Assembly: GCA_947085355.1 (NCBI GenBank)
Contig: CAMTWF010000109.1
Span: 1 to 57,544 of the forward strand
DNA: 57,544 nucleotides
Direction: 5' to 3'
Origin: an uncultured delta proteobacterium
GTDB taxonomy: Bacteria > Myxococcota_A > Polyangia > DRWM01 > JAAZOP01
A program made the translations under genes and the position numbers. The first letter of the stretch is position 1, and each line of letters starts with the position of its first letter. The notes beneath the pieces were generated by a model. It made no database searches. It was not told the origin of the DNA and saw nothing but the letters and a program-made list of their open reading frames with translations. Shown here one piece after another: positions 2,414 through 23,617 of this stretch.

Positions 2414-4627
2414 GTGAATGCATCCTGCGCTCTGTTCGCGTTCTTCTGCGCCCAGCCGTGGCTGCTCTCCCAGATCCGCGCGGAGGAAGCGACGCCGGGC
2501 GCCGGCATGCTCGCCGGCCAGGTCTTCCTCCGCGGCACGCGCGACGTGCTGCCCGACGCCCGCATCGAGGTGGCCGGGGAGGTCGCGTTCGTCGACCAGG
2601 AAGGGCGGTTCGAGCTGCGGCTGACGGAGGGGACGCACGAGGTGTTAGTGGCGCACGAGGGCTGCCGTCCCCTGGTGACGGTTGTGGACGTGGAGGCCGG
2701 GCGGCGGCTCGAGCTGGCGTTCCGGCTGGAGCGGGAGACCGGAGAGCGGCCGTACGAGACGGTGATCCGCGGCCGGCGGGACGCGGAGGAGGTGACGCGG
2801 ATCAGCCTGACCGACGAGGAGATCCACTCCCTGCCGGGCACGATGGGCGATCCGTTCCGGGCGATCGAGGCGCTGCCGGGGGTGACGCCGATCATCACGG
2901 GCATCCCGTACTACTTCGTCCGCGGCGCGCCGCCCTCGGGCACCGGGTTCTACCTGGACGGCGTGCGCGTCCCCGCTCTGTTCCACATGGCGCTCGGCCC
3001 TGCCGTCGTCCATCCGTCGCTCGTCGAGCGCATCGACTTCTTCCCCGGCGGGGCGCCAGTGGATCTCGGGCGCTACGTCGGCGGGATGGTGCGCGCGACG
3101 ACGCGCCTGCCGGGGGCCGACAGGTGGCGTTCGGAGTGGGATCTGCGGCTGACCGACGTGGGGGCGATGGTCGAGGCGCCGCTGACGGACGAGCTTCGCG
3201 TCGCCGTCTCGGGACGCTACGGCTATCCGGGGTGGCTCATCCAGCTCATCGAGGAGCGGGCGTACCTGCGCTACTGGGACTACCAGGGGCGGATCGAATG
3301 GGAGCCGCGGCGCCGGCACCGCGTCGTGCTCTTCGGCTTCGGGTCGTTCGACGAGATGGGGGAGATCCGCGACGACGGGGCGATCGACGGCCCGCGGATC
3401 CAGTTCCACCGGCTCGACCTGCGGTACGCCTACCGCCACGGCGAGACGTTGCGGGCGGAAGCGGCGGGCTGGTTCGGGTACGACGCCACGCGGATCGAGG
3501 AAGACGCGGAGATCGCCATGTGGGCGGGCGGACCGCGCGCGACGATCGCCTGGGCCCCGGCGCCGTGGATCGAACTGTCGGCCGGGACGGACGTGGAGGC
3601 GCGCGGGTTCCCGGACCCGAACCTGGACGACGAGGACGACGACGCGCCGGAGGTGCGCGAGCGCGACGCGGCGCTGGTCGGCTCGTGGGTCAAGGCGACG
3701 TTCCGCCCCACCGCGGCGACCGAGATCGGCCTGGGCGCCCGCATGGACGTTCACCGCGTGGACCGGGCGGTCGAGACGTGGACCGACGTCCGGTTGAACG
3801 TCCGGCGCCGGCTCGCCGACCGGCTGTGGCTCAAGGGCTCGGCCGGCACGTTCCACCAGCCGCAGTCGTTCATCATCGATCTGCCGGGACTCGGCTCGTT
3901 CGTCCTCGACGCGGGCCCGCAGCGGGCATACCAGCTCTCACAGGGCGTGGAGATCGCCCTGCCGTGGGGGTTGGGTCTCGACGTCCAGGCGTACTACAGC
4001 GACTTCGCCAACCTGAGCGAGCCCGATCTCTTCCGGTTCCACGACGACGAGCCCGCGAACGGCGACGAGGAGTTCGGCCAGGCGTTCTGGAGCCTCGACG
4101 GCGCGGCGTACGGGTTGGAGATCCTGCTCCGCCGGAGACTGGGCGAGGACCTCTTCGGCTGGGTCGCCTACACGATCGGCCGTTCGGAGCGCGACTACCG
4201 CGACGGGCGCGCGCCGTCCGACTTCGACCAGACGCACGTGCTCAACCTGGTGCTTTCGTGGAACGTCGGCGCCGGCTGGCGGATCGGCGGCCGGTTCCAC
4301 TTCCGCTCCGGCCGGCCCTACACGCCGGAGCGCCTGGTCGTGCCGACCGGTCCTCCAACGCCGATGCCGCCTTTCCAGATGATCTGCAGTCCCGCCGGCG
4401 AACGGAACTCGGCACGGCTCCCGCCGTTCTACCGGCTCGACGTGCGCGTGGACAAGAAGTGGACCTTCGAGACGTGGTGGTTCGGGCTCTACTTCGAGTT
4501 CATCAACGTCACCTTCACGCCGGAGGCGCTGCAGATGCTGTGCGACGAGCACGCGGATCCGCCGATCCGGCTGGAGGAGGCGCCCTACATCGTCATCCCG
4601 ACGCTGGGCTTCCGCGGCGTGTACTGA
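2414..4627 (+). CDS. TonB-dependent-receptor-like outer-membrane protein (CarboxypepD_reg-like N-domain, plug, beta-barrel)
   Basis: ORF 2294..4627. G(Q)VF..G.....DARIEV.G......D..G.F.L is a carboxypeptidase-regulatory-like fold. The plug motifs are TRISLTDEEIHSLPGTMGDPFRAIEALPGV and FVRGAPPSGTGFYLDGVRV. The C-terminus ends in an aromatic residue (GFRGVY). Start set at in-frame GTG 2414 before a hydrophobic signal-like stretch; ATG 2294 would translate repeat DNA. Confidence 0.8.
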   Translation: MNASCALFAFFCAQPWLLSQIRAEEATPGAGMLAGQVFLRGTRDVLPDARIEVAGEVAFVDQEGRFELRLTEGTHEVLVAHEGCRPLVTVVDVEAGRRLELAFRLERETGERPYETVIRGRRDAEEVTRISLTDEEIHSLPGTMGDPFRAIEALPGVTPIITGIPYYFVRGAPPSGTGFYLDGVRVPALFHMALGPAVVHPSLVERIDFFPGGAPVDLGRYVGGMVRATTRLPGADRWRSEWDLRLTDVGAMVEAPLTDELRVAVSGRYGYPGWLIQLIEERAYLRYWDYQGRIEWEPRRRHRVVLFGFGSFDEMGEIRDDGAIDGPRIQFHRLDLRYAYRHGETLRAEAAGWFGYDATRIEEDAEIAMWAGGPRATIAWAPAPWIELSAGTDVEARGFPDPNLDDEDDDAPEVRERDAALVGSWVKATFRPTAATEIGLGARMDVHRVDRAVETWTDVRLNVRRRLADRLWLKGSAGTFHQPQSFIIDLPGLGSFVLDAGPQRAYQLSQGVEIALPWGLGLDVQAYYSDFANLSEPDLFRFHDDEPANGDEEFGQAFWSLDGAAYGLEILLRRRLGEDLFGWVAYTIGRSERDYRDGRAPSDFDQTHVLNLVLSWNVGAGWRIGGRFHFRSGRPYTPERLVVPTGPPTPMPPFQMICSPAGERNSARLPPFYRLDVRVDKKWTFETWWFGLYFEFINVTFTPEALQMLCDEHADPPIRLEEAPYIVIPTLGFRGVY

Positions 4628-4718
4628 TCTACCCAACCTCGACTGTGCAGGATAGCCAGCCGGAGCGCTGCGATCGGAGGATGCCGCGTACCCGAGGTCC
4701 CGTACGTGGGCGAGGTAC

Positions 4719-5333
4719 TTACTCGTGTGCGATTGCCCCGGGCGGAGGGCCAAGTTGATCGAGCGGCGGGTCGCCGGGGATGCCGGTCCAGTTGGCCATC
4801 ACGCCGTCGGTCCACACTTCGATCACGGGAGCCTCTTCGAACTGCTCGCGAACCCGCTCGTCGTAGCGTCTTGTGAGAAAAACGAACTCCTGGTTGCGGC
4901 TGCCGTGCCAGCCGCGGCCATCGGTGGCCAGGGCGGCCACGTACGGGCCGGCGATGAGGAGGTCGGTGACCTCGAGCAGGGCGCGGACCTCCGGGAGGAG
5001 GCTCCGCTTCAGGTGCGCGAAGGTGTAGCCGCTGTAGGTCACCACCGAGCCACCGAGACGCCGGGCTTCGCTGGCGAGGCGCGCGCACGCGGCGGCCTGC
5101 TCGAAGGGCTCGCCGCCGCTAACGCTGATGCCCTCGACCTCGCCCTCCATGAGATGGGCGGCGAGTTTCTCGGGCTGCCAGAGGCGGCGGCGTTCGTGGG
5201 GATGGGTGTCGGGGTTGAAGCAGCCGGGGCAACGGATGGTGCAGCCCTGGACCCAGACCGCCGCGCGCCAACCGGGGCCGTTGGTTCGGGTCCGGGGTCT
5301 GATGGCCGAGACGTTGAGAAGCGCTTCAGGCAT
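4719..5333 (-). CDS. Small radical-SAM enzyme of the NrdG/PflA-activase type (Fer4_12/14-like), orphan
   Basis: WVQGCTIRCPGCFNPDTH (CxxxCxxC in the G-C-x3-C-x-G-C-x-N context) and SVSGGEPFEQ (SAM-binding GGEP). The ATG (5333) or GTG (5336) start overlaps the stop of the upstream AAA+ gene (cGTGATGCCTGA). Confidence 0.85.
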   Translation of the reverse strand: MPEALLNVSAIRPRTRTNGPGWRAAVWVQGCTIRCPGCFNPDTHPHERRRLWQPEKLAAHLMEGEVEGISVSGGEPFEQAAACARLASEARRLGGSVVTYSGYTFAHLKRSLLPEVRALLEVTDLLIAGPYVAALATDGRGWHGSRNQEFVFLTRRYDERVREQFEEAPVIEVWTDGVMANWTGIPGDPPLDQLGPPPGAIAHE

Positions 5334-7179
5334 CACGCAGCTCCAACTCGATCAGCTTGCCGTCCACGCGGGCGTGGACGATGCGTCCGCAGCGGAGCTT
5401 CCCGTGGTGCTCGAAAAGGAAGCGCGCCAGCGGGTTCAGGAGATCGCGCTCCACCGCGTTGAGGAGGCCGCGGCCGCCGTGGTCGACGCGCGCGCTCGCG
5501 GCGAGGTGTGCGACGACGTCGTCGCCGATGTTTAGGCCCACCCCCCAGCGTTCCTGAAGATGAGAGCGGAGCGGCTCGAGCTTTCGCTTCAGGATGTCGC
5601 GGCGAAGCTCCTCCTTCTCGATCGCGCGGAACACGACGATGTTGTCGCCCAGGCGATTCAGCAGCTCGGGACGGCGGAGGTCGCGGACGAAGTGGTCTTC
5701 GACGGCCTTCCGGAAGTGGCGCTCGTAGTCCCCTTCCTTGCCGTCCTTCGGCACCTCGGCCGCGCCGATGTTGCTCGTGAAAATGATCACCGACTCGCTG
5801 AACCAGGCGGTCTCGCCACGACCGTCCGTGAGGCGGCCGTCCTCCAAGATCTGGAGGAACTTGTCCAGTACCCGCCCGTGCGCCTTCTCGATCTCGTCGA
5901 AGAGCAGGACGGAGAACGGCCTGGCACGAACCGCGTTCGTGAGCTGTCCGCCATCCTCGAAGCCTACGTAGCCGGGCGGCGCGCCGACCAGGCGCTGATC
6001 GCTGTGCTCGTGGTTGAACTCGCTCATGTCGAACCGGATGCATGCGGCCTCGTCGCGGAACAGGAACTCGGCGCAGGCCTTCGCGAGCTCGGTCTTGCCC
6101 ACGCCCGTCGGCCCGACGAAGAAGAGGGTGCCCTTGGGCTTCATCCTGCGTGCCGAGTGCTGGAGCCCGGCGAGTCCGAGCCATGCGCGGATTATCATCG
6201 TGGCGACGTGGTCGACCGCGGCGTCCTGGCCGATCACGCGCCGGCGGAGTTCGTTGTCGACGCCGGCGAGGCGCTCTTCCGAAAGCTCCTCCCAGGGCGA
6301 GCGCTGATCCCCGAAGCGGTAGAGGTTCAGCAGGCGGTCCGGCGGCAGCTTGCGCGCCCGTGACAGCGCCACGATCTGGCGCAGGTCGGCCATCGTGAGC
6401 TGATCGGTGAGGTCGGCCATGGCTTCGATTCCCGCGCGCCGCTCCGGGACTGGCGGCGCGCCGGGCGCCGGGCGGGGAGCCTCAATCTGGGTGTCGTCCG
6501 CGTGCCGATCGAAGAAGGCCCGACGCTCATCCCGTCCCGGCGTGGGCACGGACACGATCCGCACGCGCGGCTCGCCCTGGTACAGGGCCGGCGGCACCGC
6601 GCCCAGGTTGGCGCTCACGAGCACGACCAGACCGCCGCCGCGGCGCAAGCGGTCGCTGTCGATCCGCTGCGATGGCTCGCCGACGATCGCCTTCGCGAGT
6701 TGCAGGATCCACTCTCGCTCGGCCGCATCCGGGTGCGCCGGCTGCGTAACAAGGAGGTGAGACCAGTCGATGACCAGCAGCGGGCGCACCTGGTCCTGGC
6801 CGATCACTATCCGGTACTGCGCGATCAGCTCGGGGAGGTCCACTCGCCGGCCCGCCGTAGGCGGCGCCGGCTCGGCGCGATCCTCCCCGCCCGCGTCGTA
6901 CGGCTGTCCCCGCCCGGCGTCGGGCGCGACAGTTCGCTTGACTGCCTCGTCCCACCTCCGGGCCTGTTCCTCGTCGGTGAAACGGAGGCCGTCGACTCGA
7001 TCCCAGGTGGCGCGGATCGTGAACTGCCCCAGGCGCCGCGAGAGAAGGGCAGGCAGCGTCAGGTAGTCCGAGCCCGTTCCTGACCAGAACAGATCCCGGG
7101 TGTTGCCGAACAGGACAAGGCCGGAGCGAACGTCGGCCTCGCGGTGAAGCGTAGCCAGCCAGTCAGGATCTTGAGACAT
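5326..7179 (-). CDS. Double AAA+ ATPase: degenerate N-terminal AAA+ module plus ClpA/ClpB-D2-like (AAA_2) active module
   Basis: The D2 module reads VIGQD.AV..V......R..L.......KPKGTLFFVGPTGVGKTELAKA.A..LF....A.IRFDMSEF.E.HS..RLVGAPPGYVGF..GGQLT.AVR..PFSVLLFDEIEKAH..V....LQILEDGRLTDG.G......S.IIFTSN. The N-half has LVLFGNTRD in place of a Walker A, then LLVIDWSHLL and VSVPTPGRDERRAFF. ATG 7179 is preceded by GGAGGTAGGG. The upstream 51 codons of the track ORF overlap the previous gene. Confidence 0.85.
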   Translation of the reverse strand: MSQDPDWLATLHREADVRSGLVLFGNTRDLFWSGTGSDYLTLPALLSRRLGQFTIRATWDRVDGLRFTDEEQARRWDEAVKRTVAPDAGRGQPYDAGGEDRAEPAPPTAGRRVDLPELIAQYRIVIGQDQVRPLLVIDWSHLLVTQPAHPDAAEREWILQLAKAIVGEPSQRIDSDRLRRGGGLVVLVSANLGAVPPALYQGEPRVRIVSVPTPGRDERRAFFDRHADDTQIEAPRPAPGAPPVPERRAGIEAMADLTDQLTMADLRQIVALSRARKLPPDRLLNLYRFGDQRSPWEELSEERLAGVDNELRRRVIGQDAAVDHVATMIIRAWLGLAGLQHSARRMKPKGTLFFVGPTGVGKTELAKACAEFLFRDEAACIRFDMSEFNHEHSDQRLVGAPPGYVGFEDGGQLTNAVRARPFSVLLFDEIEKAHGRVLDKFLQILEDGRLTDGRGETAWFSESVIIFTSNIGAAEVPKDGKEGDYERHFRKAVEDHFVRDLRRPELLNRLGDNIVVFRAIEKEELRRDILKRKLEPLRSHLQERWGVGLNIGDDVVAHLAASARVDHGGRGLLNAVERDLLNPLARFLFEHHGKLRCGRIVHARVDGKLIELELRDA

Positions 7180-7181
7180 CC

Positions 7182-8051
7182 CTACCTCCCCTTGCTTCGA
7201 CCACCGGCCGGCAGGTCGCGGGCCCCCTTCGACAGGCGATCCGGGTTCTTCCACACGACCTGGGGCGGACCGAGCTTGACGCCGAACCGGTCGCGCATCG
7301 CCACCTCCACCTTCTGCATCTCGTCGGCGCACGAACGCCCTTCGTAGCCGTCCAGGTCGAAAGCCATCTGACCGTCGAGCTTGACCTCGAACCGCGCGCG
7401 CCGGCCGCTCGCCAGACGTCCCTCCAGCACGACCACGCCCTCGTCGAGCCGCGGCCCGACGACGACGAAGCCCATGTCCTTGAGCGTGCCCAGAAGCCCG
7501 CGCACTACCTCGCGACGGACGCGCTCGTCGATCGCTCCCGCGGTGGCGGCGCGTGCGCGCTCGTCGGCGGCCGTCACGCTGCGGCCGGCTTCATCGATCC
7601 TCCCGGCCTCGGCGTGCTTCTCGGCCTCCGAGGCGAGGCGCTCGGCCTCCTGCGCGCCGGTCGCGAACCCCTGAGACGCGGCTACGACGGCCCGCGCCCC
7701 GGCCGCGGCCGCGCGCGCCCGCGCGACCGCCTCGGCCTGCGCTTCCGACCAGGCCCGGGCCTGCGCCTCTCCCCGGGCGATCGCCCGCTGGGCGGCGAGT
7801 TGGATCTCTCGAATCCGGTTCATGGCGGCATCCGCATCGCCGGCAATCTGCCTCCGCGCCTCGTCCAGCGTCTTGGCGACCGCGCTGATCTCCGCCGCGG
7901 CGAACTGCTGAACCGCCACGTCGCGCACGCCACGTATCGTCGCGGCGCACGCGTCGGCGAGCGCGGTACACTCCGCGCGGACTTGGGTGAGTCGGAGAGC
8001 CTCGACGCGCTCCCGCTCGAGTTCGAGACGTCGCTGACCGCTCATGCTCAT
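7182..8051 (-). CDS. Hypothetical Ala-rich coiled-coil protein with a ~110-aa C-terminal globular domain
   Basis: In-frame ATG 8051 forms an ATGA overlap with the stop of the upstream gene (8048-8050). The N-half is heptad-like and Ala/Arg/Glu-rich. The C-terminus reads VRGLLGTLKDMGFVVVGPRLDEGVVVLEGRL..FEVKLDGQMAFDLDGYEGRSC. I recognise no family. Confidence 0.65.
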   Translation of the reverse strand: MSMSGQRRLELERERVEALRLTQVRAECTALADACAATIRGVRDVAVQQFAAAEISAVAKTLDEARRQIAGDADAAMNRIREIQLAAQRAIARGEAQARAWSEAQAEAVARARAAAAGARAVVAASQGFATGAQEAERLASEAEKHAEAGRIDEAGRSVTAADERARAATAGAIDERVRREVVRGLLGTLKDMGFVVVGPRLDEGVVVLEGRLASGRRARFEVKLDGQMAFDLDGYEGRSCADEMQKVEVAMRDRFGVKLGPPQVVWKNPDRLSKGARDLPAGGRSKGR

Positions 8052-10699
8052 TGGCGCTTTCTCCTCGTCTTCCCATGCCGACGGTTGCGGGATGGATCGT
8101 GCGCCGGCCGCGTGCCTTCCTCCACCAGAGCGATGAGCCCGGCTTCGGAAAGGCCGATCTCGCTCCAGGCGCTGAGGGTATCGCGCCAGATCTGCGTTGT
8201 CCTCGCGCGCGCCTCGCGGAGAGGCACAGCGAGACGACGGATGCGCTCGGTGACGCGGCTCTCGACCTCGTCGCCCAGGAGGGGCCGGAGCGGTGCCAGC
8301 TCGCGGAGCCACCACGCGATCCAGGCAGGCTCGGTCGGTGCTGGAAAACCGCCCACGAGGCCACTCGCCCAAGCACGGCCCACCTCCGCGATCTCGTGCC
8401 AGTCGGCTCCGGCGGCCGCGAGCAGGCGGACGGTTTCCCTGGCTGACTGCGCGGTCGGCAGGGCGTCGGGCGCGGGCAGGATCTGCCGCAGCGCCTGCTT
8501 CCACCACCCTGCGTCGAGGGCGTAGCCGAGCCGTCGCAGCGCTCGCCACAGAGCGTCCACGTCCCCGGTGGACGGCTTCGGACCCAGGAGGCTCGGCGCG
8601 ATGGCCTCGGCGGGGACAACGCCCACGGCCTGCCGGAGGAGGTCGTCGCGCTCGTCGGGCCGGGCCGCGAGCAGGCTCTGCCAGAGTTCGATCGCCCGCT
8701 CGCGAAACGCTGCGGGGACGATGTCGCGCAGGGCGCGGGTCTGGTCGATCCAGACCCGCAGTCCTTGCGGCGAGACCGGCTCCGGCACCTCCCGGAGCAG
8801 CCGTCGAGCCCAGTTAGCCAGCTCGGACCTGTCGAGCGTGCGCTGCGCTGCGGCCGCCACAGCGGCGATGTCCGAGCCGGTCCAGGAAGCGACGCGAAGG
8901 CACGCATCCCGCGCGTCACGCCATCGCGGGGTCCCGCGCGCCGCGTCCTTGCCCCATCGACCGGTGGCCGCACTGTCGATCGCGAGGAGCGTTTCGAGCG
9001 GCTCCGGATCCTGTGCGACCGAACGTGGTCGCACCCACGCTTCCACTGCGCCCTCCACAAGCGTCGAGGCTGCAACGCCATCGGGCGCGGCCCTGGCCAG
9101 GACCGAGAGCAGAGCGTCCCGGGTGCCTCCGCCGTGCGCGAGCACCGCCTTCAGGCCCTCGTTCCACGCCTCGACGGCCGGGGCCTCGATCACTCCCCGT
9201 TCCAGCGAGGGCACGAGGACCCGTACAAGAGCTCCGAGACGGCGCAGGACGACGATCCGCGCCAGGCCAGGGCACAGTTCGACGGCCAGCTGGACGAGTT
9301 CGCGCCACGCCGCCTCGTCCGCCCGGAAGGTGACGCGCGCAACGGCCAGCCGCAGGTCCGTTCGTTCGAGGGCGGCCGAAGCTTCGACATCGGGATCCGG
9401 GCGCGCCTCGTCGAGGGTTCCCCCCGCGGACAACGCCGGGGCGCGGCCGGCGCTGGTGCGCGCTTGCGCTCCGAACGCCGCCCCGATCAATCCCGCGCGT
9501 ATTTCGACGGCGGCTCCGGCGGCGAGCACGCCCACGAGTTCCATAGCGATGCGCTGCGGACCGGCGCCTACCTGGACATCGTCCAGGACGAGACCAGAAC
9601 GTCCATCGGCAACCATCGCGCACGGCAGTGCATCCTGCGACGACGTGCGCACGCCCAGGACGGGGCTCGAACCGTCTCCCCACGCCAGCACGCCCGCCGA
9701 CTCTGCACCGACGACAAGCACGCGGACGCCGCGCTGGGCGGCCGCATCGATCTCACGTTCCATCCCCTCCATCTCGGTCCAGGCCGCGTGGAGCACGATC
9801 TCGGCGCGCGCGCCGCCGACCAGGCGCGCGGCCGCAGCCGGCACGTCGGCGACGGGGACGGTGGCAGCCACCTTGCGGCGCCACTGATCGAACGTCATTC
9901 CGACCGACCGCCGCAATCGGTCACTCGCGGACCAGGCGCCCGATACGGGTCTGTTGGCAAGACCCACGTCCGCGACGGGGTCGCACGCGCGAAGGTAGTC
10001 CAGCGACTTCCCCGAGAGGCCAGGAGCGCGCAGGTCGAGGTCGCCGGAGAGACCGATCCGCATCTCCACGCTCACGGGCGTCCACTGGACGCTCGGAAAG
10101 CCGCTTCTCGGCGGCCCGACTTGCCGAACCTCGCCGTCGCCGCGGACCAGGTCGGCGTGATAGCGACGAACGATCTCCCGCGCGCGGTCTAGGCCGACCG
10201 ATTCGCGGGCCGTCGGCAGGTCGCGCGTCCGGGGAAACGTCATCGGGACGGTCGCGCGTCGCTCCGGCGGCTCCCTGATCGACTCGTCGGTCAGGGCGTC
10301 GAAGTAGAAGGTCTCCCCGTGCGCGGCCGGTTCTCCCTCGATCAGCCCGCGCCGGTATAGGTCGTAGCCCGTCGGAGAGAAGTCGAGCTCCGGCAGGCCT
10401 GCCTGTTCGGGCGGCGGATTCTCCGAACCGTTGTTCCGGGGGCGAAGCGCGCCAAGACGGATCGTCGCGCGCAGCGCGTCCGAGAGAAACCCGGCGTCCA
10501 CCCCGAGTTCCTCGGCCACCTCTCCGAGCGTCGGCGGCGCTTCACGAAACTCATCAACGACCCGCAGGACTGCGAACTCCAGGGCCGTCAGCCTGCGCGG
10601 GTGGACGATCTCCAGGGCAACCGGGACGCACTCCACCGGCCACCAGATCTGGACGCGATGCCAGGGGGCGCCGTTTTCAGCCGAGGATCTGTCGGGCAA
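8048..10699 (-). CDS. Large hypothetical protein: N-terminal winged-helix-like segment, central PLD-fold-like segment lacking the HxK catalytic motif, helical-repeat C-half
   Basis: LTALEFAVLRVVDEF..PTLGEVAEELGVDAGFLSDALRATIRLGAL is wHTH-like. ARAEIVLHAAW....MEREIDAAAQRGVRVLVVG ... DALPCAMVADGRSGLVLDD resembles a PLD repeat with HxK replaced. The start is TTG 10699, overlapping the helicase stop by 23 nt; the start is uncertain. Confidence 0.7.
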   Translation of the reverse strand: MPDRSSAENGAPWHRVQIWWPVECVPVALEIVHPRRLTALEFAVLRVVDEFREAPPTLGEVAEELGVDAGFLSDALRATIRLGALRPRNNGSENPPPEQAGLPELDFSPTGYDLYRRGLIEGEPAAHGETFYFDALTDESIREPPERRATVPMTFPRTRDLPTARESVGLDRAREIVRRYHADLVRGDGEVRQVGPPRSGFPSVQWTPVSVEMRIGLSGDLDLRAPGLSGKSLDYLRACDPVADVGLANRPVSGAWSASDRLRRSVGMTFDQWRRKVAATVPVADVPAAAARLVGGARAEIVLHAAWTEMEGMEREIDAAAQRGVRVLVVGAESAGVLAWGDGSSPVLGVRTSSQDALPCAMVADGRSGLVLDDVQVGAGPQRIAMELVGVLAAGAAVEIRAGLIGAAFGAQARTSAGRAPALSAGGTLDEARPDPDVEASAALERTDLRLAVARVTFRADEAAWRELVQLAVELCPGLARIVVLRRLGALVRVLVPSLERGVIEAPAVEAWNEGLKAVLAHGGGTRDALLSVLARAAPDGVAASTLVEGAVEAWVRPRSVAQDPEPLETLLAIDSAATGRWGKDAARGTPRWRDARDACLRVASWTGSDIAAVAAAAQRTLDRSELANWARRLLREVPEPVSPQGLRVWIDQTRALRDIVPAAFRERAIELWQSLLAARPDERDDLLRQAVGVVPAEAIAPSLLGPKPSTGDVDALWRALRRLGYALDAGWWKQALRQILPAPDALPTAQSARETVRLLAAAGADWHEIAEVGRAWASGLVGGFPAPTEPAWIAWWLRELAPLRPLLGDEVESRVTERIRRLAVPLREARARTTQIWRDTLSAWSEIGLSEAGLIALVEEGTRPAHDPSRNRRHGKTRRKRQ

Positions 10700-13600
10700 G
10701 GCGCCTTCCCCCTGACCTGCGGATCTGTTCGATGATGTTCAGATATGCGGGGACATCCACGGGCGAGCCGCCGTCCAGCGGCGGCAGGGGAACCTGCGCG
10801 TTCTTCCACGTCTCCTCCGCGCCAACCACGACGAGGAGTCGCTGTGCGCGAGAGAGACCCACGTTAATGCGCTGAAACTCGCGGACGAAGCTGCCGAGCC
10901 TGCCCTCCTTCGAGCGCACTAGGCTGGCGATGATGATCGGCTTCTCCATCCCCTGGAAGCGGTCCACGGTGTTCGTCCGGAGCTCCATCGTACCGAAGGG
11001 CTCGGGATGCTTCGCCTTGCACGCGTCGATCGCGCCCCGGAGCAGCTTGAGCTGTGCGCCGTAGAACGTGATCACGCCGACCTCGCGCTGTGCCATCACG
11101 CGCAGACGCGAACCCGGCCGTGCCGAATCGCCTGGCTTCTGGCTGCGCCCATCGACGCGTACGCGTCGCTCCTCGAAGAGGTCGGCGATCGTCTCCGGCG
11201 CGGCGCCGCCCAGGAGCCGCGCGACGATTTCGCGCAGCGCCTTGCCCTCGTCGCTCTTGTCGATCTCGGTTTCGCGCGTCGCGCCATAGCCGAGCTTCAC
11301 GAGCTGCTGCCCGATCCGGAGCAGCAGTGCAACGACCAGGTCGACCTCCAGCCGGTTCACCTTCGAGCTGCCGGCCTGCTCGTCCCAGGCGGCAGTCCCA
11401 CCCGGATCCTTGGACGAGTCGACCCAGAGCAGGTGCTGCCGCAGCTCCAGCAGGCGACCGCCGTGGCCGTCGTCGATGTCGAGGTGATGGTCCCTGGACT
11501 TGCCGAGTGCTTTGCGGCTCGGCCCGGCCTCAAGACGCCCCTCGTAGAACTGGTTGACGGCGTCCATGATCGCCGGGTGCATGCGGTACTGGGTCCAGAG
11601 CATCGCCTTGATTGCGTCATGGGCGTCCTCGAAGAGCTCTTGGAACAAACTCGCCGTGACCATCCGCTTGAACCGATCGTAGTCCTCCCGGCGGATCTCT
11701 CCGTCCTCCGTCGCCTCGCCGAAGCTGGCGTCCCGCTCCCGGAACATGGGTGGGAGCTGCCGATGGTCGCCCACGAGCACCGCCTTGTGCCCGAGCAGCA
11801 GCGGCAGGATCAGCTCGGGCGGCGTTGCCTTGCTCACCTCGTCGACGATGACGATGTCGAAGGGCCGGAACTCGGGATCTTGCCAGACCTTGCGCTTGCC
11901 GGCCTCGTTGCAGGTCATGCCCACGACGTTGGCCCAGCGAACGTAGAGGATCTGAAGCTGCTCGCGGTCGGTGTCGCTGGCCCTGTCCAGGCGCGCGAGC
12001 CACTCTGTCTGGACCCGCCTCCACCTCCTCGCTCGCTCCACCCGATGGCCTGCTTCCTTGCGCGCGGCGGCGACGACCAGCCCGGCTTCGCGCAGGGCGG
12101 CATCGGTAGGGTCCCCGACCTCCTGCACGACGCCGGCGTCGCCCCAGGCTCGATCCCACGCCTGTCGCGCGGCCCGTAGTTCCTCTCCCACGACCCGCTC
12201 GGTCCAGAGGGCACCCTCGACGGCGGCTTCCGCTTCCCGCCGTTCCTGCTCGCGGCTTCCCAGAGCCCTCATGGCTCGCTCGTGCTCTGCCGCCACGACC
12301 GACGCGCGGTCGCGCCAGACCAGCGCGAGCGCGCCGATGGCTTCCCGCGCGCGCTTCGCGGTCGCAAGCTCGCGCTCGACGAGATCGCCGGCTTCGCGCA
12401 GCGCATCGCGGGTAGCGTTCGACGGCTCGAGCGTGTCCACGATGCCGGCAATGCAGGGTGGCGGCGCGTGGGGCCACGCGGTACGCGCAGCCCGGTGAAG
12501 ATTGCCCGTCAGACGGTTCCATCCGGCCCCCTCGATCTGCTTGATCCGGCGATTCACGACCTGGAGGCGGCGGAGTTCAGGCGCGCTGTCCGAGTCGATG
12601 AGGCCCGCCTTCTCGGCTCGCAGGCTCCTCAACTCCTGTCCGGCCTCTGGATCCGGATCTGAGCCTGCCATCAGCACTTCGATCGCGACCATGACGGCAC
12701 GAAGGGGCACCTCCCGCTGGCGGGCCCGGTCCAGCGCCGCGAGCGGTGGCAGGCTGCGGTCGAGGCCGCGAGGAAGCGAGACGAGCTTGTCCGACCACTC
12801 CACGCCGGCGTCGGCCGGCAGCGGGGCGTCGCTGGCGCACCATCGGATCAGCGAGCGCAGGCGCTCGTCCGACTTCGCGGCGTCGTCCGCAGCGCGTCGG
12901 GCCGCATCGAGTCGGGCTCGGGCGTCCTCCTCGGCGCGCCGGGCGCGCTCCGACGTGGAACGCGCGTCGTCGCTCGCCTTCGCGGCCCGCTCGTAGGTCG
13001 CCAGGGCGGTGGCCAGCGCGTCGATGGCCCGCTCGCGCCGCAGCAGCGCGGCCTCGGACTCCTGCGCGGCGTCCATGCGTCCCCGACAGTAGCCGGCGAT
13101 GTTGGCGAACCACCGGTCGATCACGTTCCCGATCAGGAACTCCTTGAACTCGTCGTCCACGCGGTCAGGGTCGCCCAGACGCAGCGCACGCACGGCCGGA
13201 GCGTCGGACAGCCGGGCCAGCGCGTTGTCCACTGCCAAGTTGGTCTGCGAGGCGACCAGGACGCGCTTGCCCTCGACGGCCGCCCGCAGGCAGATGTCGG
13301 CGATCACCGTCGTCTTGCCCGTGCCCGGCGGTCCTTGGATCAGGCACAGGTCGGGCGCGGCGAGCGCCTTACGGACCGCCTCCCGCTGGCCGGGGTTGAG
13401 ATCGCGGCCGCCGCATACCGGCGGCAGATCCTCCGGCACGTCGAGGGGCACGCTCGCACTCTTCGCGCTGAAGATGAAGTCCGCCAGCCGTGGCGAGAAG
13501 CCCTGGCTGTTGTTCAGCCGGTTGACGCCCCCGCGCTGGTTGAACAGCGGCGCCAGGTCACCCGCGATGCTCGACACCAGCAGGCCCACGGCCGGCAGGC

Positions 13601-14633
13601 CCTTCTCATCCTTCCGAACCTTGTGCCGCAGCAGTTCGGCCTGTTCCTCCTCGACCCGGATCACGACGCGGCGGTGTCCGCGATCGACGCGAACGTCGCC
13701 CCACCCGTCGCGATCGCGCTGAAGATCGATCTCCTCGACCGCTTCCACCTCTCCGAGCACGGTGACCTCCGGCTCTCGCCGCCTTCCGCGTTGCGGGTGC
13801 CTGCCGTTGCCATATCGATGTTCGCCGGCGTCCTCCTCGTCGCCGTTGTCGGCGGGCTGCACCGTCGCTCCCAACGCGAGACCGACCAGCCTGGGAGGGG
13901 GCAAGTCCCTTGCGCGAACCAGGAAGCCGAGTAGCGTCTCGCCTTCCCAACGCCATCCGTCGTAGGGCACCTTGAGCTGGTTTCGGTGGACGAGCGCCTC
14001 CTTCCAGTCGAGGTAGAGGCGCCAGGACTGGAGGCGCTCGGCCGTCACGGCGCGATGGAACGGCAGGCCCGCCAGAGACGCGAAGTCGGCATCCGTCATG
14101 AAGAAGTCGCCGCCCCAGCGAACTGGTCCACTGACCCGGACCTCGAAGTCCCGCCGCAGCACGTGTGGCGTCACCTCGATCCCCTTGATGTTCAGCCTGT
14201 CCTGCGCACGATATGCCCGGAACGCCAGTGTCAGCCCGCCCACTGCCGGCCGACGCGCCTTCGGACCTTCACACAGGGGCCGCAGGAGCAGGTCCAGCCG
14301 GTGCGCCGGTACGCCGGGATCGTAGCCGATGTTCGACACGTACATCGTGGCCGGCGCCCCGTCCGGCCAGACCTCCGTCAGGAAATCCGCAAGGCCGAAC
14401 TCCTCGGGGTCCCATTCGTTCGCATCGGCCCACGCGCGGACGAGGTCGCGGACGGGCTTCGGGATATCCACGCGGGCAACGAACGTGAGAACCAAGTCGG
14501 AGACGGGGATATCCACGACCAGCGGAGGATCCTCGCATCCCGCTTGGTCGCTGCGCGAGCAGACGCCCGCGAAAGCCGTCTGGTCATCGGGCTCGCTCAC
14601 GCCCTCTTCCTGATGGGGTGGATGAAGCAACAC
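10677..14633 (-). CDS. Superfamily-1 Upf1/DNA2-like helicase (AAA_11/AAA_12 type) with ~410-aa unknown N-domain and ~420-aa coiled-coil insertion
   Basis: Motif I is LIQGPPGTGKTT (aa ~431-442) and Ia is VASQTNLAVDNAL. A long Ala/Arg/Glu coiled-coil follows. Motif II is IVIVDEVSKA, III is VLVGDHRQLPP, IV is QYRMHPAI. Motif V is VDRFQGMEKPIII and VI is RINVGLSRAQ. GTG start at 14633; alternative GTG at 14600. Confidence 0.9.
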   Translation of the reverse strand: MLLHPPHQEEGVSEPDDQTAFAGVCSRSDQAGCEDPPLVVDIPVSDLVLTFVARVDIPKPVRDLVRAWADANEWDPEEFGLADFLTEVWPDGAPATMYVSNIGYDPGVPAHRLDLLLRPLCEGPKARRPAVGGLTLAFRAYRAQDRLNIKGIEVTPHVLRRDFEVRVSGPVRWGGDFFMTDADFASLAGLPFHRAVTAERLQSWRLYLDWKEALVHRNQLKVPYDGWRWEGETLLGFLVRARDLPPPRLVGLALGATVQPADNGDEEDAGEHRYGNGRHPQRGRRREPEVTVLGEVEAVEEIDLQRDRDGWGDVRVDRGHRRVVIRVEEEQAELLRHKVRKDEKGLPAVGLLVSSIAGDLAPLFNQRGGVNRLNNSQGFSPRLADFIFSAKSASVPLDVPEDLPPVCGGRDLNPGQREAVRKALAAPDLCLIQGPPGTGKTTVIADICLRAAVEGKRVLVASQTNLAVDNALARLSDAPAVRALRLGDPDRVDDEFKEFLIGNVIDRWFANIAGYCRGRMDAAQESEAALLRRERAIDALATALATYERAAKASDDARSTSERARRAEEDARARLDAARRAADDAAKSDERLRSLIRWCASDAPLPADAGVEWSDKLVSLPRGLDRSLPPLAALDRARQREVPLRAVMVAIEVLMAGSDPDPEAGQELRSLRAEKAGLIDSDSAPELRRLQVVNRRIKQIEGAGWNRLTGNLHRAARTAWPHAPPPCIAGIVDTLEPSNATRDALREAGDLVERELATAKRAREAIGALALVWRDRASVVAAEHERAMRALGSREQERREAEAAVEGALWTERVVGEELRAARQAWDRAWGDAGVVQEVGDPTDAALREAGLVVAAARKEAGHRVERARRWRRVQTEWLARLDRASDTDREQLQILYVRWANVVGMTCNEAGKRKVWQDPEFRPFDIVIVDEVSKATPPELILPLLLGHKAVLVGDHRQLPPMFRERDASFGEATEDGEIRREDYDRFKRMVTASLFQELFEDAHDAIKAMLWTQYRMHPAIMDAVNQFYEGRLEAGPSRKALGKSRDHHLDIDDGHGGRLLELRQHLLWVDSSKDPGGTAAWDEQAGSSKVNRLEVDLVVALLLRIGQQLVKLGYGATRETEIDKSDEGKALREIVARLLGGAAPETIADLFEERRVRVDGRSQKPGDSARPGSRLRVMAQREVGVITFYGAQLKLLRGAIDACKAKHPEPFGTMELRTNTVDRFQGMEKPIIIASLVRSKEGRLGSFVREFQRINVGLSRAQRLLVVVGAEETWKNAQVPLPPLDGGSPVDVPAYLNIIEQIRRSGGRRLARQILG

Positions 14634-14679
14634 GTCTTCCGACGCGCGCCGTGCGCGAGCGATTCACCGGAGCCGGGCC

Positions 14680-14696
14680 GGGGGGGGGGGGGGGGG
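14680..14696. repeat. G17 homopolymer (C17 on the operon sense strand), 47-63 nt upstream of the helicase start codon
   Basis: Counted directly: g at 14680, ten g at 14681-14690, six g at 14691-14696. Confidence 0.9.
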
Positions 14697-14767
14697 AACG
14701 GTTACGTTATTTGATGGTTACGGCCACCGTCACCATATCAGCGTAACCCACCGGAATTCCGGGCGTT

Positions 14768-14865
14768 ACCCGGTTCTTGTCAGCCGCCACCCGGTTCTTG
14801 TCAGCCGCCACCCGGTTCTTGTCAGCCGCCACCCGGTTCTTGTCAGCCGCCACCCGGTTCTTGTG
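14768..14865. repeat. 21-bp tandem array, 4 perfect copies plus a partial fifth (unit ACCCGGTTCTTGTCAGCCGCC)
   Basis: Perfect period of 21 with unit starts at 14768, 14789, 14810, 14831 and 14852. Degenerate relatives (cccggttct, atctccaggt) continue to ~15060. Confidence 0.95.
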
Positions 14866-15129
14866 ACGCATCTCCAGGTCTGCTCGATCCGCCTCCCGGT
14901 TCTCGGCGGCCACTTCCAGGATCGTGGAGACCAGCGTCGCATTCTTGCCGGCCATCTCCAGGTTCATGTCGACCGGCCATCCGTTCCTCGCGCGGCGTCA
15001 CCCGGTTCTCCCGCCTCGCCTCCGGCTTCGCGGGGCCCGGCTCCCGATTCACCCGGCCGACCGCTCCGTTCGCTGCCGGCGCTTCCGGGATCGTCCCGGG
15101 TGTTTCCTCTGATTTCCGGGGGGCTGTAG

Positions 15130-15771
15130 TCAGGGGGTGGTCGGCGGGCTGGTGTCGTCCTCGTCGCCCGGCTGGCGGCGGTCGAGCAGGCTGCGATACT
15201 CGCGCGACTCCCGGCCGAAGGTGTTGCGCACGACGCGCCGGAAGCGGACGAACAGCGGACGCGCGAGCATCGCCGTGTCGGCGCGGCACTGCTGCGCCTT
15301 CTGCAAGGCGTCCAGCGCCCCGGACGCCTCGCCCTGCTCCTTCACCGCGCTGTCCAGCAGCCCCACCATGGCCTTGAAGAGATCCTTCGCCCAGGCCGAC
15401 GCGGCGTGTTCCTCGAGCACATCCTCCAGATCCTCGGCCGCCCCGAGCAGGTCGTCGGGCGTGGTGAAGCTCGACGCGGCCAGGAAGGTCCGCCCGGGCG
15501 ACTTCGTCATCACGACCTCGCGGGTCTCGTCGTAGAACTTCGCGAGCGGCGCGACCGCGGCCAGCGCCTCCCGCACTTCCTTGCTCGCCCCACGCAGCAA
15601 CCTGCCGACCTCGGCGTCGGCGGCGTTGTACTTGACGATCTCGACCACCATGTCGGGCGCGATCGCCTTGATGGCGAGCATCTGGCCCTCGGGCGTCGCC
15701 ACGGCGTTGGTGATGATCCCCTGTGCCCGAGCGAACTGCCGCGTCGTGATCGTTACGGACTGCTGTGCCAT
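15130..15771 (-). CDS. Hypothetical protein (213 aa), no recognisable family
   Basis: Clean ORF with ATG 15771 preceded by GGAGAGAAGGGAG. The composition is protein-like (MAQQSVTITTRQFARAQGIITNAV...) with an acidic, proline-rich tail. Confidence 0.6.
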   Translation of the reverse strand: MAQQSVTITTRQFARAQGIITNAVATPEGQMLAIKAIAPDMVVEIVKYNAADAEVGRLLRGASKEVREALAAVAPLAKFYDETREVVMTKSPGRTFLAASSFTTPDDLLGAAEDLEDVLEEHAASAWAKDLFKAMVGLLDSAVKEQGEASGALDALQKAQQCRADTAMLARPLFVRFRRVVRNTFGRESREYRSLLDRRQPGDEDDTSPPTTP

Positions 15772-16010
15772 CGCATGACTCCCTTCTCTCCAGGCGCGCC
15801 AAGCCTCCCACCACGGCCGGCCTTTCTTCGCGCCCGTCTACCGGGGAGGGTGTCTACCAGCGGCCGGCGGGTGATGTCAACCCTCGGTGTGCGGTTTTTT
15901 TTCAACGACCCGCCAAGTCGCCAAAGACGCCGATGCCGTCCCCACATCCGATCTGCCGCAAACTTGCCCGCGCGTGCAGCAGGATGAATGATAGCGGCGG
16001 AGGTTGGAGG

Positions 16011-17891
16011 ATGAGCGCACCGATTCGAACGGCGGCACTGGCGATCGTTCCGGCGGTCCTGGCGGCCGCCTGCGGCAGCTCGGTGGTCGGTGGATCGTGT
16101 CCCCCGGATCGCTCCGCCTGCGGCGGGGTCTGCGTGGACACGGCGTCGGACCGCGCCAACTGCGGCGCATGCGGCGTCGCGTGCGAGGGCCACGAGGAAT
16201 GCCGGGGCGGAGCGTGCGTGGCCGTCTGCCTGCCGGGGCAGGTCTTGTGCGACGGCGAGTGCGTCGACACGCTGCGCGACAGCCGCCATTGCGGCCGGTG
16301 CGGGAACGCATGCGCCGCGCCGAGCGTCTGCGGCTTCGGCGAGTGCATGGGCGAATGCCCGGCCGGCGCCGAGCCGTGCGGCGCGGACGGGTGCGTCGAC
16401 ACGTCGAGCGATCCGGCCCATTGCGGCGGCTGCGGGCGGGCCTGCGCGCCGGGGCTGCGATGCGCCGGCGGCGCGTGCGTCGAGGGGTGCCCGGACGGCC
16501 TGGAGGACTGCGGCGGCGCGTGCGTCGACCTGCGGACCGACTGGGCGAACTGCGGATCGTGCGGCGCGGCGTGCCCGAGCGGCCGCTTCTGCCAGCGCGG
16601 CGAGTGCGTCTCCAGTTGCCTGCCGGGGTACGAGCGGTGCGGGCAGTCGTGCGTGGATCTGTCGGCGGACGCGCGGCACTGCGGCGCCTGCTTCTCCCCG
16701 TGCTCCGGCGGCCTGGTCTGCCTTGCCGGCCGGTGCGCGGACTCGTGCCTGCCCGGGCAGACCGAGTGCGCCGGGGCGTGCGTCGATCTCTCGGCGGATC
16801 CCGACAACTGCGGCGCGTGCGGCCGGGCCTGCCCGGTCGGCACGCCGTGCGTCCGCGGCGTTTGCGAGAGCCCGTGTCCGGCCGGCATGGAGGACTGCGG
16901 CGGCGCGTGCGTCGACCTCGATGCCGACCCGGCGCACTGCGGCGCGTGCGGCCGGCGGTGCGCGAGCGGCGAGAGGTGCCTCTCCGGGGCGTGTCGGATC
17001 GTCTGCCCCGCAGGGCGGATCCCGTGCGGGACCGAGTGCGTCGATCCTTCGATCGACCCGGCCAACTGCGGGGAGTGCGGGCGCACCTGCGACCCCGGCC
17101 GGTATTGCCATCTCGGGTCGTGCGTCCTGGACTGCCCGCCGGACCTGGCGGCCTGCGGATCGTCGTGCGTGGACACGACCGAGAACCCGGACCATTGCGG
17201 CGGGTGCGGCGTCTCCTGCGACACGGGCATCTGCGAGGAGTCGCGTTGTGCCGACGCGTTCCCGGGCCACGTCGTGCTGATCGGCCACAACTACGCATCC
17301 TACCGCGGCGCCCAGGGCCGTCTGCTCGGGAACGCGGTCTTCCTGACGCTCCGCACCCAGGCGGTGCGCGCCGTGGCGTTCTCCGCGTGGGCGCCCACCG
17401 GCCCCGGCGCCACGGCCGACAACGTGGACCGCCTGATCACGACCGCGGCCGTCGGCTCGGGCCGCACGTGGGACAGGGCCTACGCCGCAGACGCCGCCGA
17501 GATGGCGGCGGCCCTGCCTGCCGTCGACCTGGCGCTCTTCTACGAGCAGTCGTCGGCGTCCGACGCCGACCTGCGCGCCGCCGGGACCGCCATGGCCCCG
17601 GCGCTGGCCGCGTTCGTGGCGCGCGGCGGCGTGGTCGTGGTCGTCGACTACATCACCGGCAACGCGGGCACATGGCAGATCCTCGACGCCGCCGGCCTGC
17701 TCTCGGCGAGCGGGGCGGAGGACATCACCGGAGCGCAGGTCAACGTGGACGGGTCCGCCACGCTCGCACTCGGCCTCCCGACCAGGTACGTGGCCGAGCG
17801 CGGATCCGTGAGCTTCGCGAGTTCCGAGCGGACCCAGGTGGTGAGACACGCGACGGGTCCGGTCGTCATCCACAAAATCTTCGCGCCCTGA
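16011..17891 (+). CDS. Secreted lipoprotein with ~10 tandem cysteine-rich repeats (C-x-G-x-CVD-x5-CG-x-CG-x-C type) and a ~230-aa C-terminal alpha/beta domain
   Basis: ATG 16011 follows GGAGGTTGGAGG. The signal and lipobox read MSAPIRTAALAIVPAVLAAAC. Units such as CGGACVDLxxDxxxCGxCGxxC repeat every ~37 aa. The track ORF start (15765) lies upstream in non-coding DNA. Confidence 0.85.
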   Translation: MSAPIRTAALAIVPAVLAAACGSSVVGGSCPPDRSACGGVCVDTASDRANCGACGVACEGHEECRGGACVAVCLPGQVLCDGECVDTLRDSRHCGRCGNACAAPSVCGFGECMGECPAGAEPCGADGCVDTSSDPAHCGGCGRACAPGLRCAGGACVEGCPDGLEDCGGACVDLRTDWANCGSCGAACPSGRFCQRGECVSSCLPGYERCGQSCVDLSADARHCGACFSPCSGGLVCLAGRCADSCLPGQTECAGACVDLSADPDNCGACGRACPVGTPCVRGVCESPCPAGMEDCGGACVDLDADPAHCGACGRRCASGERCLSGACRIVCPAGRIPCGTECVDPSIDPANCGECGRTCDPGRYCHLGSCVLDCPPDLAACGSSCVDTTENPDHCGGCGVSCDTGICEESRCADAFPGHVVLIGHNYASYRGAQGRLLGNAVFLTLRTQAVRAVAFSAWAPTGPGATADNVDRLITTAAVGSGRTWDRAYAADAAEMAAALPAVDLALFYEQSSASDADLRAAGTAMAPALAAFVARGGVVVVVDYITGNAGTWQILDAAGLLSASGAEDITGAQVNVDGSATLALGLPTRYVAERGSVSFASSERTQVVRHATGPVVIHKIFAP

Positions 17892-18027: not shown

Positions 18028-18053
18028 TGCTTGGTTGCGGCGCCGCCGCGCTA
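18021..18053. repeat. Half copy (loop plus one arm) of the 39773-39849 MITE-like element
   Basis: ttggttgcggcgccgccgcgcta (18031-18053) is identical to the reverse complement of 39781-39803. aactccct upstream also matches, with a 2-nt indel. It supplies the stop codon (cta, 18051-18053) of the SMC-like gene. Confidence 0.8.
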
Positions 18054-22952: not shown

Positions 22953-22990
22953 GCCGAAGCAGATACCACGAGAGGACGCGGCGATCCACG

Positions 22991-23035
22991 GCCGTTCCGC
23001 CCGTTCTGCCCGATCTACCCGATCTACCCGTTCCG
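22991..23035. repeat. 9-mer tandem array (CCCGATCTA / CCCGTTCYG) x 5
   Basis: gccgttccg cccgttctg cccgatcta cccgatcta cccgttccg read directly. Confidence 0.85.
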
Positions 23036-23575: not shown

Positions 23576-23617
23576 GACGACCGCGGGGAAGTCCCGACCC
23601 CGGGTTCCGGGGTTTCC

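Follow-up and report, generated by a model that had tools for sequence, protein, structure and literature searches.

A five-gene operon joining a MkoA-like helicase to an AAA+ ATPase and a radical-SAM enzyme: a candidate defence system related to Mokosh

Introduction

What might be the common purpose of five tightly packed genes encoding, one after another, a large helicase, a protein with a phospholipase D (PLD) fold, a helical protein, an AAA+ ATPase and a radical S-adenosylmethionine (radical-SAM) enzyme? The question is raised by a contig of an uncultured delta proteobacterium (GenBank assembly GCA_947085355.1, contig CAMTWF010000109.1), of which the whole stretch of 57,544 nucleotides, called here the window, was analysed. 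The genes in question, numbered 1 to 5 in the order of transcription and their products p1 to p5, occupy the minus strand within positions 4719-14633 and form an operon of ~10 kb. An initial annotation, made from the DNA letters alone, had proposed them as an undescribed conflict or defence system. In the following we argue, with somewhat better than even odds (roughly 0.55), that they constitute a system of the Mokosh lineage, serving in defence or conflict, of which the AAA+/radical-SAM module is an integral part. Such a system would most likely be directed against phages or plasmids. Mokosh, widespread as a defence against phages, has been proposed as ancestral to components of the piRNA pathway.

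Results

Five genes in one operon

The initial annotation had described overlapping or nearly abutting junctions between five open reading frames (ORFs) of 1318, 883, 289, 617 and 205 amino acids, and every one of these junctions was found again in the sequence. The stop codon of gene 1 (TGA, 10677-10679) lies within gene 2, which starts with TTG at 10699, giving an overlap of 23 nt. Genes 2 and 3 share an ATGA (8048-8051). The TAG of gene 3 (7182-7184) is separated by GG from the ATG of gene 4 (7179), with GGGGAGG closely upstream, and genes 4 and 5 overlap in GTGATGCCTGA (5326-5336). Such overlaps exceed chance, and those at the first two junctions recur across phyla: with the window counted among the loci, the 23-nt overlap is present in six of eight and the 4-nt overlap of genes 2 and 3 in five of eight. 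The five genes are one translationally coupled operon, just as had been claimed.

Of two candidate start codons of gene 1, GTG 14633 and GTG 14600, the latter is preceded by GAAGAGGG and is more likely the true one; gene 5 may start at ATG 5333. Independent gene calling on a Logan contig with the same DNA gave products of 883, 289, 617 and 204 amino acids. The window has a G+C content of ~71%. Third-position G+C of the five genes (0.80-0.85) lies below that of the flanking core genes, dnaE and a TonB-type receptor-like gene (0.92-0.95), which is consistent with later acquisition of the operon.

The five genes travel together

Conservation of the gene neighbourhood, suggested earlier as a check on the system, was examined through p4, the most conserved of the five products. 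Many full-length relatives of p4 at 50-77% identity exist in Myxococcota and Planctomycetota, and their clusters at 90% identity have mostly one to three members. Neighbourhoods were taken around eight close relatives from Myxococcus, Sedimentisphaerales and metagenomic contigs (Table 1). All eight loci beyond the window have the full set of five, arranged as in the window. Identity to the window decreases from p4 (52-66%) through p5 (39-66%), p3 (30-57%) and p1 (30-45%) to p2 (21-30%), the fastest-evolving member. At one locus, belonging to a 9.4-Mb genome (L087, 2565-6602), the helicase was called as two pieces of 793 and 410 amino acids with a gap of 423 nt between them, which reflects either decay to a pseudogene or faulty assembly, the other four genes being intact.

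A search with the C-terminal domain of p3 led to plasmids of five taxa, three of which were examined (Table 1). All three are conjugative or resistance plasmids and carry a parallel five-gene version. RefSeq gives its products, in order, only generic names: 'AAA domain-containing protein' (1274-1631 aa), 'PIN domain-containing protein', hypothetical protein, 'AAA family ATPase' and '4Fe-4S single cluster domain-containing protein'. The plasmid cassettes resemble the window in gene order, in their MkoA-like helicase (~1e-96 to 1e-102 against MkoA), in a homologous N-terminal module of the gene 2 product and in their p3-, p4- and p5-like proteins, with identities of 41-43% for p4, 37-42% for p5 and 30-42% for the C-terminal part of p3. 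They differ from it at the C-terminus of the gene 2 product, where a PIN_4 domain takes the place of the catalytically defective PLD fold and its helical extension. Their p3-like proteins are ~90 amino acids longer, and the tail retains W-x-NPD, not the GA..LP part. The five genes thus travel together across phyla and on plasmids.

A contig scan with the p4 alignment was dominated by ordinary ClpB, owing to generic motifs (GVGKTELAK, PPGYVGFE), and nine of its 80 loci proved to be full-length relatives. Distant relatives of p4, identical over the full length at 33-38% of positions, occur in Pseudomonas, Bradyrhizobium and metagenome-assembled genomes (MAGs). Here we found loci in which the p4 homologue is followed by a p5 homologue and then by a protein of ~2,090 amino acids uniting a Ser/Thr kinase with a MkoA/Hhe-like helicase (Table 1); it matches PDC-S37 at 5e-148 and, below the cutoff, ProA at 5e-150. 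These loci share with the window the adjacency of p4 and p5 homologues and a MkoA-related helicase; unlike the window, they have the reversed gene order and a kinase-bearing partner, and lack p2 and p3. Other distant p4 relatives adjoin kinase proteins. The AAA+/radical-SAM pair therefore recurs as a partner of kinase and helicase proteins that are MkoA-like. PDC-S37 is listed by PADLOC as a single-gene candidate, without this pair; judging from the gene arrangement, proteins of its type may work in three-gene units. One distant p4 relative that has no radical-SAM neighbour (L003, 9986-14221) lies directly upstream of RtcB and a gene with an RF-1 domain (PrfH-like), an RNA-repair and ribosome-rescue pair.

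Table 1. Genes of the operon, its upstream region and the related loci. Positions of the genes and of the upstream region are those of the window; those of the L-numbered loci refer to the respective locus.
Feature	Position	Strand	Description
Gene 1 (p1)	10677..14633	-	Superfamily 1B (SF1B)/Upf1-like helicase, 1307-1318 aa
Gene 2 (p2)	8048..10699	-	Winged helix-turn-helix (wHTH), beta module and PLD fold without HxK, 883 aa
Gene 3 (p3)	7182..8051	-	Helical bundle, beta4-alpha domain, conserved disordered tail, 289 aa
Gene 4 (p4)	5326..7179	-	AAA+ protein, C-terminal half ClpB nucleotide-binding domain 2 (NBD2), 617 aa
Gene 5 (p5)	4719..5336	-	Glycyl-radical-activase-type radical-SAM enzyme, 204-205 aa
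Upstream leader/promoter region	14634..14997	-	Homopolymer, tandem repeat, small ORF; membership in the system uncertain
L081/L082			Close-family locus, Myxococcus
L083/L084			Close-family locus, Sedimentisphaerales
L085, L086, L087, L088, L089, L090			Close-family loci, metagenomic contigs
pBMJM1_5			Plasmid locus, Leisingera
pNDM1_010055			Plasmid locus, Acinetobacter
pW18-2-a			Plasmid locus, Moellerella
L004; L007; L009	3917-12692; 9980-18782; 5239-14047		AAA+/radical-SAM/kinase-helicase loci (Bradyrhizobium, Pseudomonas, MAG)

Genes 1 and 2 are related to Mokosh

When the five proteins were compared with PADLOC v2 models, p1 was recognized as MkoA, p2 weakly as MkoB and p4 by generic AAA cores; p3 gave nothing and p5 nothing meaningful. 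The match of p1 to MkoA is strong (1.5e-103) and covers only positions 528-1083 of the 1112 in the model. Pfam domains AAA_11 and AAA_12, together with PDB matches to IGHMBP2, DNA2, Upf1/Nam7 and Sen1, bear out the earlier assignment of p1 to Upf1/DNA2-like helicases of superfamily 1, and its motifs are intact (Walker A GPPGTGKT, motif II DEVSKA, motif VI VGLSRAQ). The helicase core had also been described as split. It is indeed interrupted between ~580 and ~880, as seen from the split AAA_11 match and from PDB matches (~384-580, then from ~887); the insertion between the helicase motifs amounts to ~300 residues. The first ~400 residues, annotated as an N-terminal unknown domain, have no match in Pfam or PDB, also when searched as a profile. 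No kinase Pfam domain was detected in p1, and the kinase part of MkoA (model positions ~32-282) remained unmatched. The NCBIfam families 'PLuB system helicase-like' and 'ProA' were considered for p1 and rejected, their matches being partial and far below cutoff; the PLuB system is not mentioned in the literature covered by our full-text search.

The match of p2 to MkoB (2.4e-8) comprises p2 residues 16-329 and the N-terminal 58% of the model. An AlphaFold2 model of residues 1-430, built from 43 relatives (predicted local distance difference test, pLDDT, 90.9; predicted template modelling score, pTM, 0.84), places a beta-hairpin, a wHTH and a beta-rich module at ~14-242 and a PLD fold at ~285-400; a helical extension and a poly-basic tail follow. 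Foldseek relates the model to PLD, NucT, Nuc, Zucchini and PLD3, to the inactive PLD-like DUF1669 of FAM83 and to TrmB/TrmBL2, and the winged helix to MarR/MexR. According to motif counts, the catalytic HxK is absent from p2 of the window and from 42 of the 43 relatives, and Lys never occurs two positions beyond His304, which is itself partly conserved. The model, the Foldseek matches and the motif counts agree with what had been noticed at first sight, a winged-helix N-terminus and a PLD fold without its catalytic residues.

Members of the p2 family range from 256 to 891 amino acids across the close-family loci. Short forms (256-408 aa) are reduced to the N-terminal module and the basic tail at the C-terminus, and in orthologues of 256-312 amino acids the PLD domain is missing altogether. 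Most gene 2 proteins examined, regardless of length and C-terminal domain, end in a short poly-basic tail (KTRRKRQ, KKGKKR). In an hhalign profile comparison, the first ~230 residues of p2 align with the N-terminal part of the plasmid PIN proteins over 217 columns (probability 96%, E 3.4e-9). Gene 2 thus seems to be built of a conserved N-terminal module and an exchangeable C-terminal domain, be it PIN, a catalytically defective PLD fold or none.

Mokosh type I (MkoA + MkoB) is an experimentally validated defence system in which canonical MkoB carries an active PLD domain, PLD active-site mutations abolish defence, and recognition of invader nucleic acid has been hypothesized (Millman et al., bioRxiv 10.1101/2022.05.11.491447). 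The operon shares with it a COG1112/Upf1-like helicase, a MkoB-like protein with a PLD fold, and the position of the helicase gene before that of its partner. Unlike MkoA, p1 has no Ser/Thr kinase and possesses the insertion and the unmatched N-terminal region; the PLD fold of p2 lacks the HxK that Mokosh defence requires; and three further genes, for a putative adaptor, an AAA+ protein and a radical-SAM enzyme, make five co-conserved genes instead of two. By these comparisons, the cassette is an elaborated relative of Mokosh type I, not wholly separate from named systems. The earlier designation as an undescribed system is correct in that the full gene set has no name, and it does not hold in the sense of being unrelated to anything named, genes 1 and 2 being homologues of MkoA and MkoB. 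Models for p3 and for gene 2 of the PIN type are absent from both PADLOC-DB 2.0 (2023) and NCBIfam 20.0 (2026), as is a system-level name for the set, and in full-text literature (subscription-only papers lay outside the search) no paper combines Mokosh, radical SAM and AAA+.

The p3-p4-p5 trio

No Pfam, PADLOC or NCBIfam match was obtained for p3. In its AlphaFold2 model (pLDDT 82.8), helices form a long bundle (1-192), followed by a small domain of beta4-alpha type (196-256) and a disordered tail; a comparison with PDB folds returned nothing below E 0.1 (best E 0.12). In spite of the predicted disorder, the tail, GPPQVxWKNPDR..GA..LP, is the most conserved stretch of p3; none of P262, Q264, W267, P270 and P281 varies among 37 sequences. 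The 98 homologues of p3 are all hypothetical or unnamed, nearly all of them without a Pfam domain, and no match was found among 50,697 phage records. We considered the tail as a glycyl-radical site and rejected this, its G276 being conserved in 33 of the 37 sequences and replaced in the plasmid versions.

The C-terminal half of p4 (residues 300-606) corresponds to NBD2 of ClpB. This is evident from Pfam (AAA_2, 2.7e-49, and ClpB_D2-small), from the PDB match to ClpB residues 552-849 and from NCBIfam (ClpB, 3.8e-86, 290 bits against a cutoff of 1232), and confirms the ClpB-like second AAA+ domain (D2) seen in the initial annotation. Walker A (GPTGVGKT), Walker B (DE), the GYVG pore loop, sensor-1 and the GGR of sensor-2 are invariant in 21 sequences. 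The N-terminal ~296 amino acids are family-specific and have no P-loop, the expected Walker A site reading GLVLFGNTRD. A degenerate first AAA+ domain (dead D1) had been claimed for this half. The missing P-loop agrees with the claim; motif resemblance suggests an AAA-like origin, and as a profile the N-terminal half has a single AAA-like match in PDB, an inactive FtsH-like AAA chain at a non-significant E of 0.41. A dead D1 is nonetheless plausible. Aligned to the ClpB consensus, the conserved G290 would correspond to the 'TGIP' region of ordinary ClpB.

Hsp100 proteins such as ClpB thread polypeptides. In contrast to them, p4 is devoid of the N-domain, NBD1 and the middle domain, and does not have the two active rings of a disaggregase. 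DolB of Dodola (1.3e-16) and PDC-M37B (1.4e-28), both in PADLOC, match p4 in the AAA core only, and neither DolA (DUF6414) nor a PDC-M37A partner was found among the five proteins, so that the cassette lacks a defining feature of Dodola and of PDC-M37.

Matches of p5 to Pfam Fer4_12 (2e-31), to pyruvate formate-lyase activating enzyme (PFL-AE) in PDB (1.4e-5) and to NCBIfam NrdG (3.8e-25, 88.6 bits against a cutoff of 126.1) and PflA (2e-13, 50.2 against 231.75) support its earlier classification as an NrdG/PflA-type radical-SAM enzyme. Eleven orthologues preserve GxGxR...GCxxxCxxCxN (C32, C36, C39), GGEPF and the NrdG-like WxGSxNQ. Like NrdG and PflA, p5 has the CxxxCxxC cluster motif, the SAM motifs with GGEP, NrdG-like C-terminal motifs and a size of ~200 amino acids. 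Unlike them, it misses every curated family cutoff and has no glycyl-radical partner at related loci. PFL-AE and NrdG act by taking hydrogen from a glycine residue of a protein. Among the genes called at the related loci, neither a Gly_radical, PFL or NRDD family nor a partner of the NrdD, PFL or GrcA type was identified; beyond the operon, the window was scanned non-exhaustively. QueE-type and viperin-type alternatives were rejected, only NrdG/PflA-type models giving a score of note. Prokaryotic viperin (pVip) matches p5 at E 0.0065 over the cluster motif only, and the NCBIfam viperin model yields 15.7 bits against a cutoff of 180, so p5 fails this family.

Genomic context

Insertion sites of the cassette vary between loci. 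In Myxococcus it is situated between GmrSD/AIPR and core genes, with an integrase fragment nearby, and in Sedimentisphaerales it has a Fic neighbour. Integrases lie beside two of the metagenomic close-family loci; ArdC and AlpA adjoin one metagenomic locus and Imm35 another. L086 is accompanied by SNase and by a pair of a radical-SAM and a thymidylate-kinase-like gene, viperin-like by domain content, and the Acinetobacter plasmid carries a second pair of AAA ATPase and radical-SAM genes. Another plasmid locus has ArdA, a PD-(D/E)XK nuclease and an integrase as neighbours, and repABC is also found near plasmid cassettes. L090 is located in a prophage-like stretch with DUF5131, ThyA, HMUDK and M78/HTH. 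In the window and in L089 the cassette lies among chromosomal genes.

The cassette would appear to be mobile defence cargo and not a housekeeping locus, because its distribution is sporadic, its clusters are tiny, its GC3 is lowered and its contexts are those of mobile and defence genes. A universally conserved housekeeping locus, which the initial annotation had named as a finding that would speak against a conflict role, was not what we encountered.

Two details of these neighbourhoods deserve mention. At two unrelated loci, L086 (12698-14655) and L092 (12121-13625), the cassette is directly followed by a second radical-SAM gene and a small kinase or AAA gene. The arrangement is reminiscent of viperin with its kinase and may reflect chance within islands or a functional link. 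The prophage-like region of L090 (13363-21923) encodes a thymidylate synthase and a protein resembling 5-hydroxymethyldeoxyuridine (5-hmdU) DNA kinase (HMUDK_hel). Thymidylate synthase and 5-hmdU DNA kinase are markers of thymidine-hypermodifying phages.

Discussion

Active-site motifs of the helicase, the AAA+ protein and the radical-SAM enzyme are intact, and the catalytic motif of the PLD fold is lost. Any model of the system has to accommodate both. In a defence system of the Mokosh lineage, p1, whose N-terminal region is variable, and p2, which evolves fast and has a wHTH and a beta module, would be the sensing and specificity part, engaging invader RNA or replication intermediates by analogy with the Mokosh proposal. 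The slowly evolving trio p3-p4-p5 would be a common output or control module, in which p3 may bridge components by means of its bundle and WKNPD tail. Because of its GYVG pore loop, a p4 hexamer would be expected to use ATP to thread a polymer, which by analogy with ClpB is most likely a polypeptide, and p5 would apply the chemistry of the SAM-derived 5'-deoxyadenosyl radical to a substrate that is either protein or nucleotide. As for gene 2, its nuclease domain would be interchangeable: active PLD in canonical MkoB, PIN on the plasmids, dead PLD in the window, and absent from the shortest forms. With this domain dead or absent in some variants, the output shared by all of them would be non-nucleolytic, and the damaging or arresting activity of the window variant would come mainly from the AAA+/radical-SAM pair, not from a nuclease.

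How that activity might be exerted can be sketched further. The trio could itself be an immune effector, in which the unfoldase feeds phage or host polypeptides to p5, which installs a backbone radical; in aerobic hosts, oxygen-dependent chain cleavage or cross-linking would follow, commanded by the Mokosh-type helicase, and the nuclease domains of gene 2 would be optional extras. We give this elaboration a slim chance.

Several observations weigh against a defence system with an integral AAA+/radical-SAM module, or against the chemistry envisaged for it. None of the five products contains a recognizable toxic effector (active nuclease, TIR, SIR2, pore or protease), nor the glycyl-radical motif RVxG[FYW], and the glycine in the p3 tail is conserved in only 33 of 37 sequences and not retained on the plasmids. 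An adjacent radical-SAM gene is missing from four of nine distant p4 relatives, L089 has no obvious defence neighbours, and the word-indexed and capped searches may have missed loci where the five genes occur apart.

Among other explanations, the one that fares best would have the cassette serve the mobile element itself, be it a plasmid, an integrative and conjugative element or a prophage, in entry exclusion, anti-defence, or replication and maintenance. Several loci do lie in integrative elements, in a prophage-like region or on conjugative plasmids, with repABC, ArdA, ArdC, AlpA and integrases adjoining. Defence systems, however, are routinely cargo of just such elements, while the Myxococcus cassette sits between GmrSD/AIPR and core genes, and those of the window and L089 are chromosomal. 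With p3 unmatched in the phage records, and with the strongest homology of the cassette being to a validated defence helicase family (bioRxiv 10.1101/2022.05.11.491447), we judge a function for the mobile element unlikely, if still worth keeping in mind.

Could the operon simply be two unconnected systems side by side, one a degenerate Mokosh type I of two genes (p1 and p2), the other made up of p3, p4 and p5? Side-by-side independent systems are common in defence islands. PADLOC sees only p1 and p2 as Mokosh parts, the AAA+/radical-SAM pair also accompanies giant Ser/Thr kinase-helicase proteins and kinases, and some distant AAA+ relatives occur without either. Yet all close-family and plasmid loci examined keep the five genes in order, and the boundary between the two supposed systems, that of genes 2 and 3, is the very one at which the 4-nt overlap recurs in five of eight loci. 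Moreover, the distant pairs again adjoin MkoA-like kinase or helicase proteins, arguing for a functional partnership. Mere neighbourhood is thus very improbable.

Cellular stress response or quality control without any conflict role, such as repair or clearance of damaged RNA-protein complexes, is brought to mind by the textbook functions of Upf1-family helicases and ClpB in RNA and protein quality control and by the distant p4 relative adjoining RtcB and an RF-1-domain gene, but the sporadic distribution, tiny clusters, island-like codon usage and fast-evolving sensor-like parts, together with carriage on plasmids, defence-gene neighbours and nuclease-type domains in gene 2, leave it hardly any room.

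If the operon is indeed a defence system of the Mokosh lineage, it deserves attention for several reasons. In the cassette, a MkoA-like helicase is firmly tied to an unfoldase of the Clp type and a radical-SAM enzyme of the NrdG type, and this partnership persists where the nuclease domain is dead or missing. Radical-SAM chemistry in bacterial immunity is so far known from viperins, which make chain-terminating nucleotides. An activase-type enzyme without a glycyl-radical partner, standing beside a protein-threading ATPase, would imply chemistry unlike that of viperins. The cassette is found both in Myxococcota and on plasmids of Acinetobacter and Enterobacterales, and it bears on the mechanism of Mokosh, which is still poorly understood.

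Other features of the window

Upstream of gene 1, the leader contains a homopolymer of 17 nt (14680-14696; G on the plus strand, C on the coding strand) and a perfect 21-nt unit repeated 4.6 times in tandem (14768-14864). The repeat sits in a small ORF on the minus strand, with the predicted product MRH(KNRVAAD)x4KNRVTPG... These repeats could be slippage-prone sites of phase variation, iteron-like binding sites or a repeat peptide; neither they nor the homopolymer are present at the related loci. Within 4000-16000 no Rfam family was found, no sigma-70-like promoter was detected for the operon, and terminator-like sites are at chance level.

Other genes of the window comprise dnaE, the TonB-type receptor-like gene and a gene for a protein with STIG1-type Cys-rich repeats, and the closest relatives of the window's proteins belong to Myxococcus, Pyxidicoccus, Archangium and Nannocystis, so that the contig is most likely of myxobacterial origin. 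The STIG1-repeat gene (15765-17891, plus strand) encodes 708 amino acids with eight such repeats (Pfam Stig1, 5.6e-50), overlaps long spurious ORFs on both strands and separates the operon from a cluster on the minus strand (18051-23917). In this cluster, genes for proteins of 277 and 496 amino acids, both without a Pfam match and the larger also without one in PDB, precede an SMC/Rad50-like ATPase of ~900-1150 amino acids (Pfam SMC_N, AAA_23). No JetD-like gene was identified in it. The cluster, which includes a protein with a Mut7-C RNase domain (23024-23917), could be a MksBEF/Wadjet-like or another SMC-based system.

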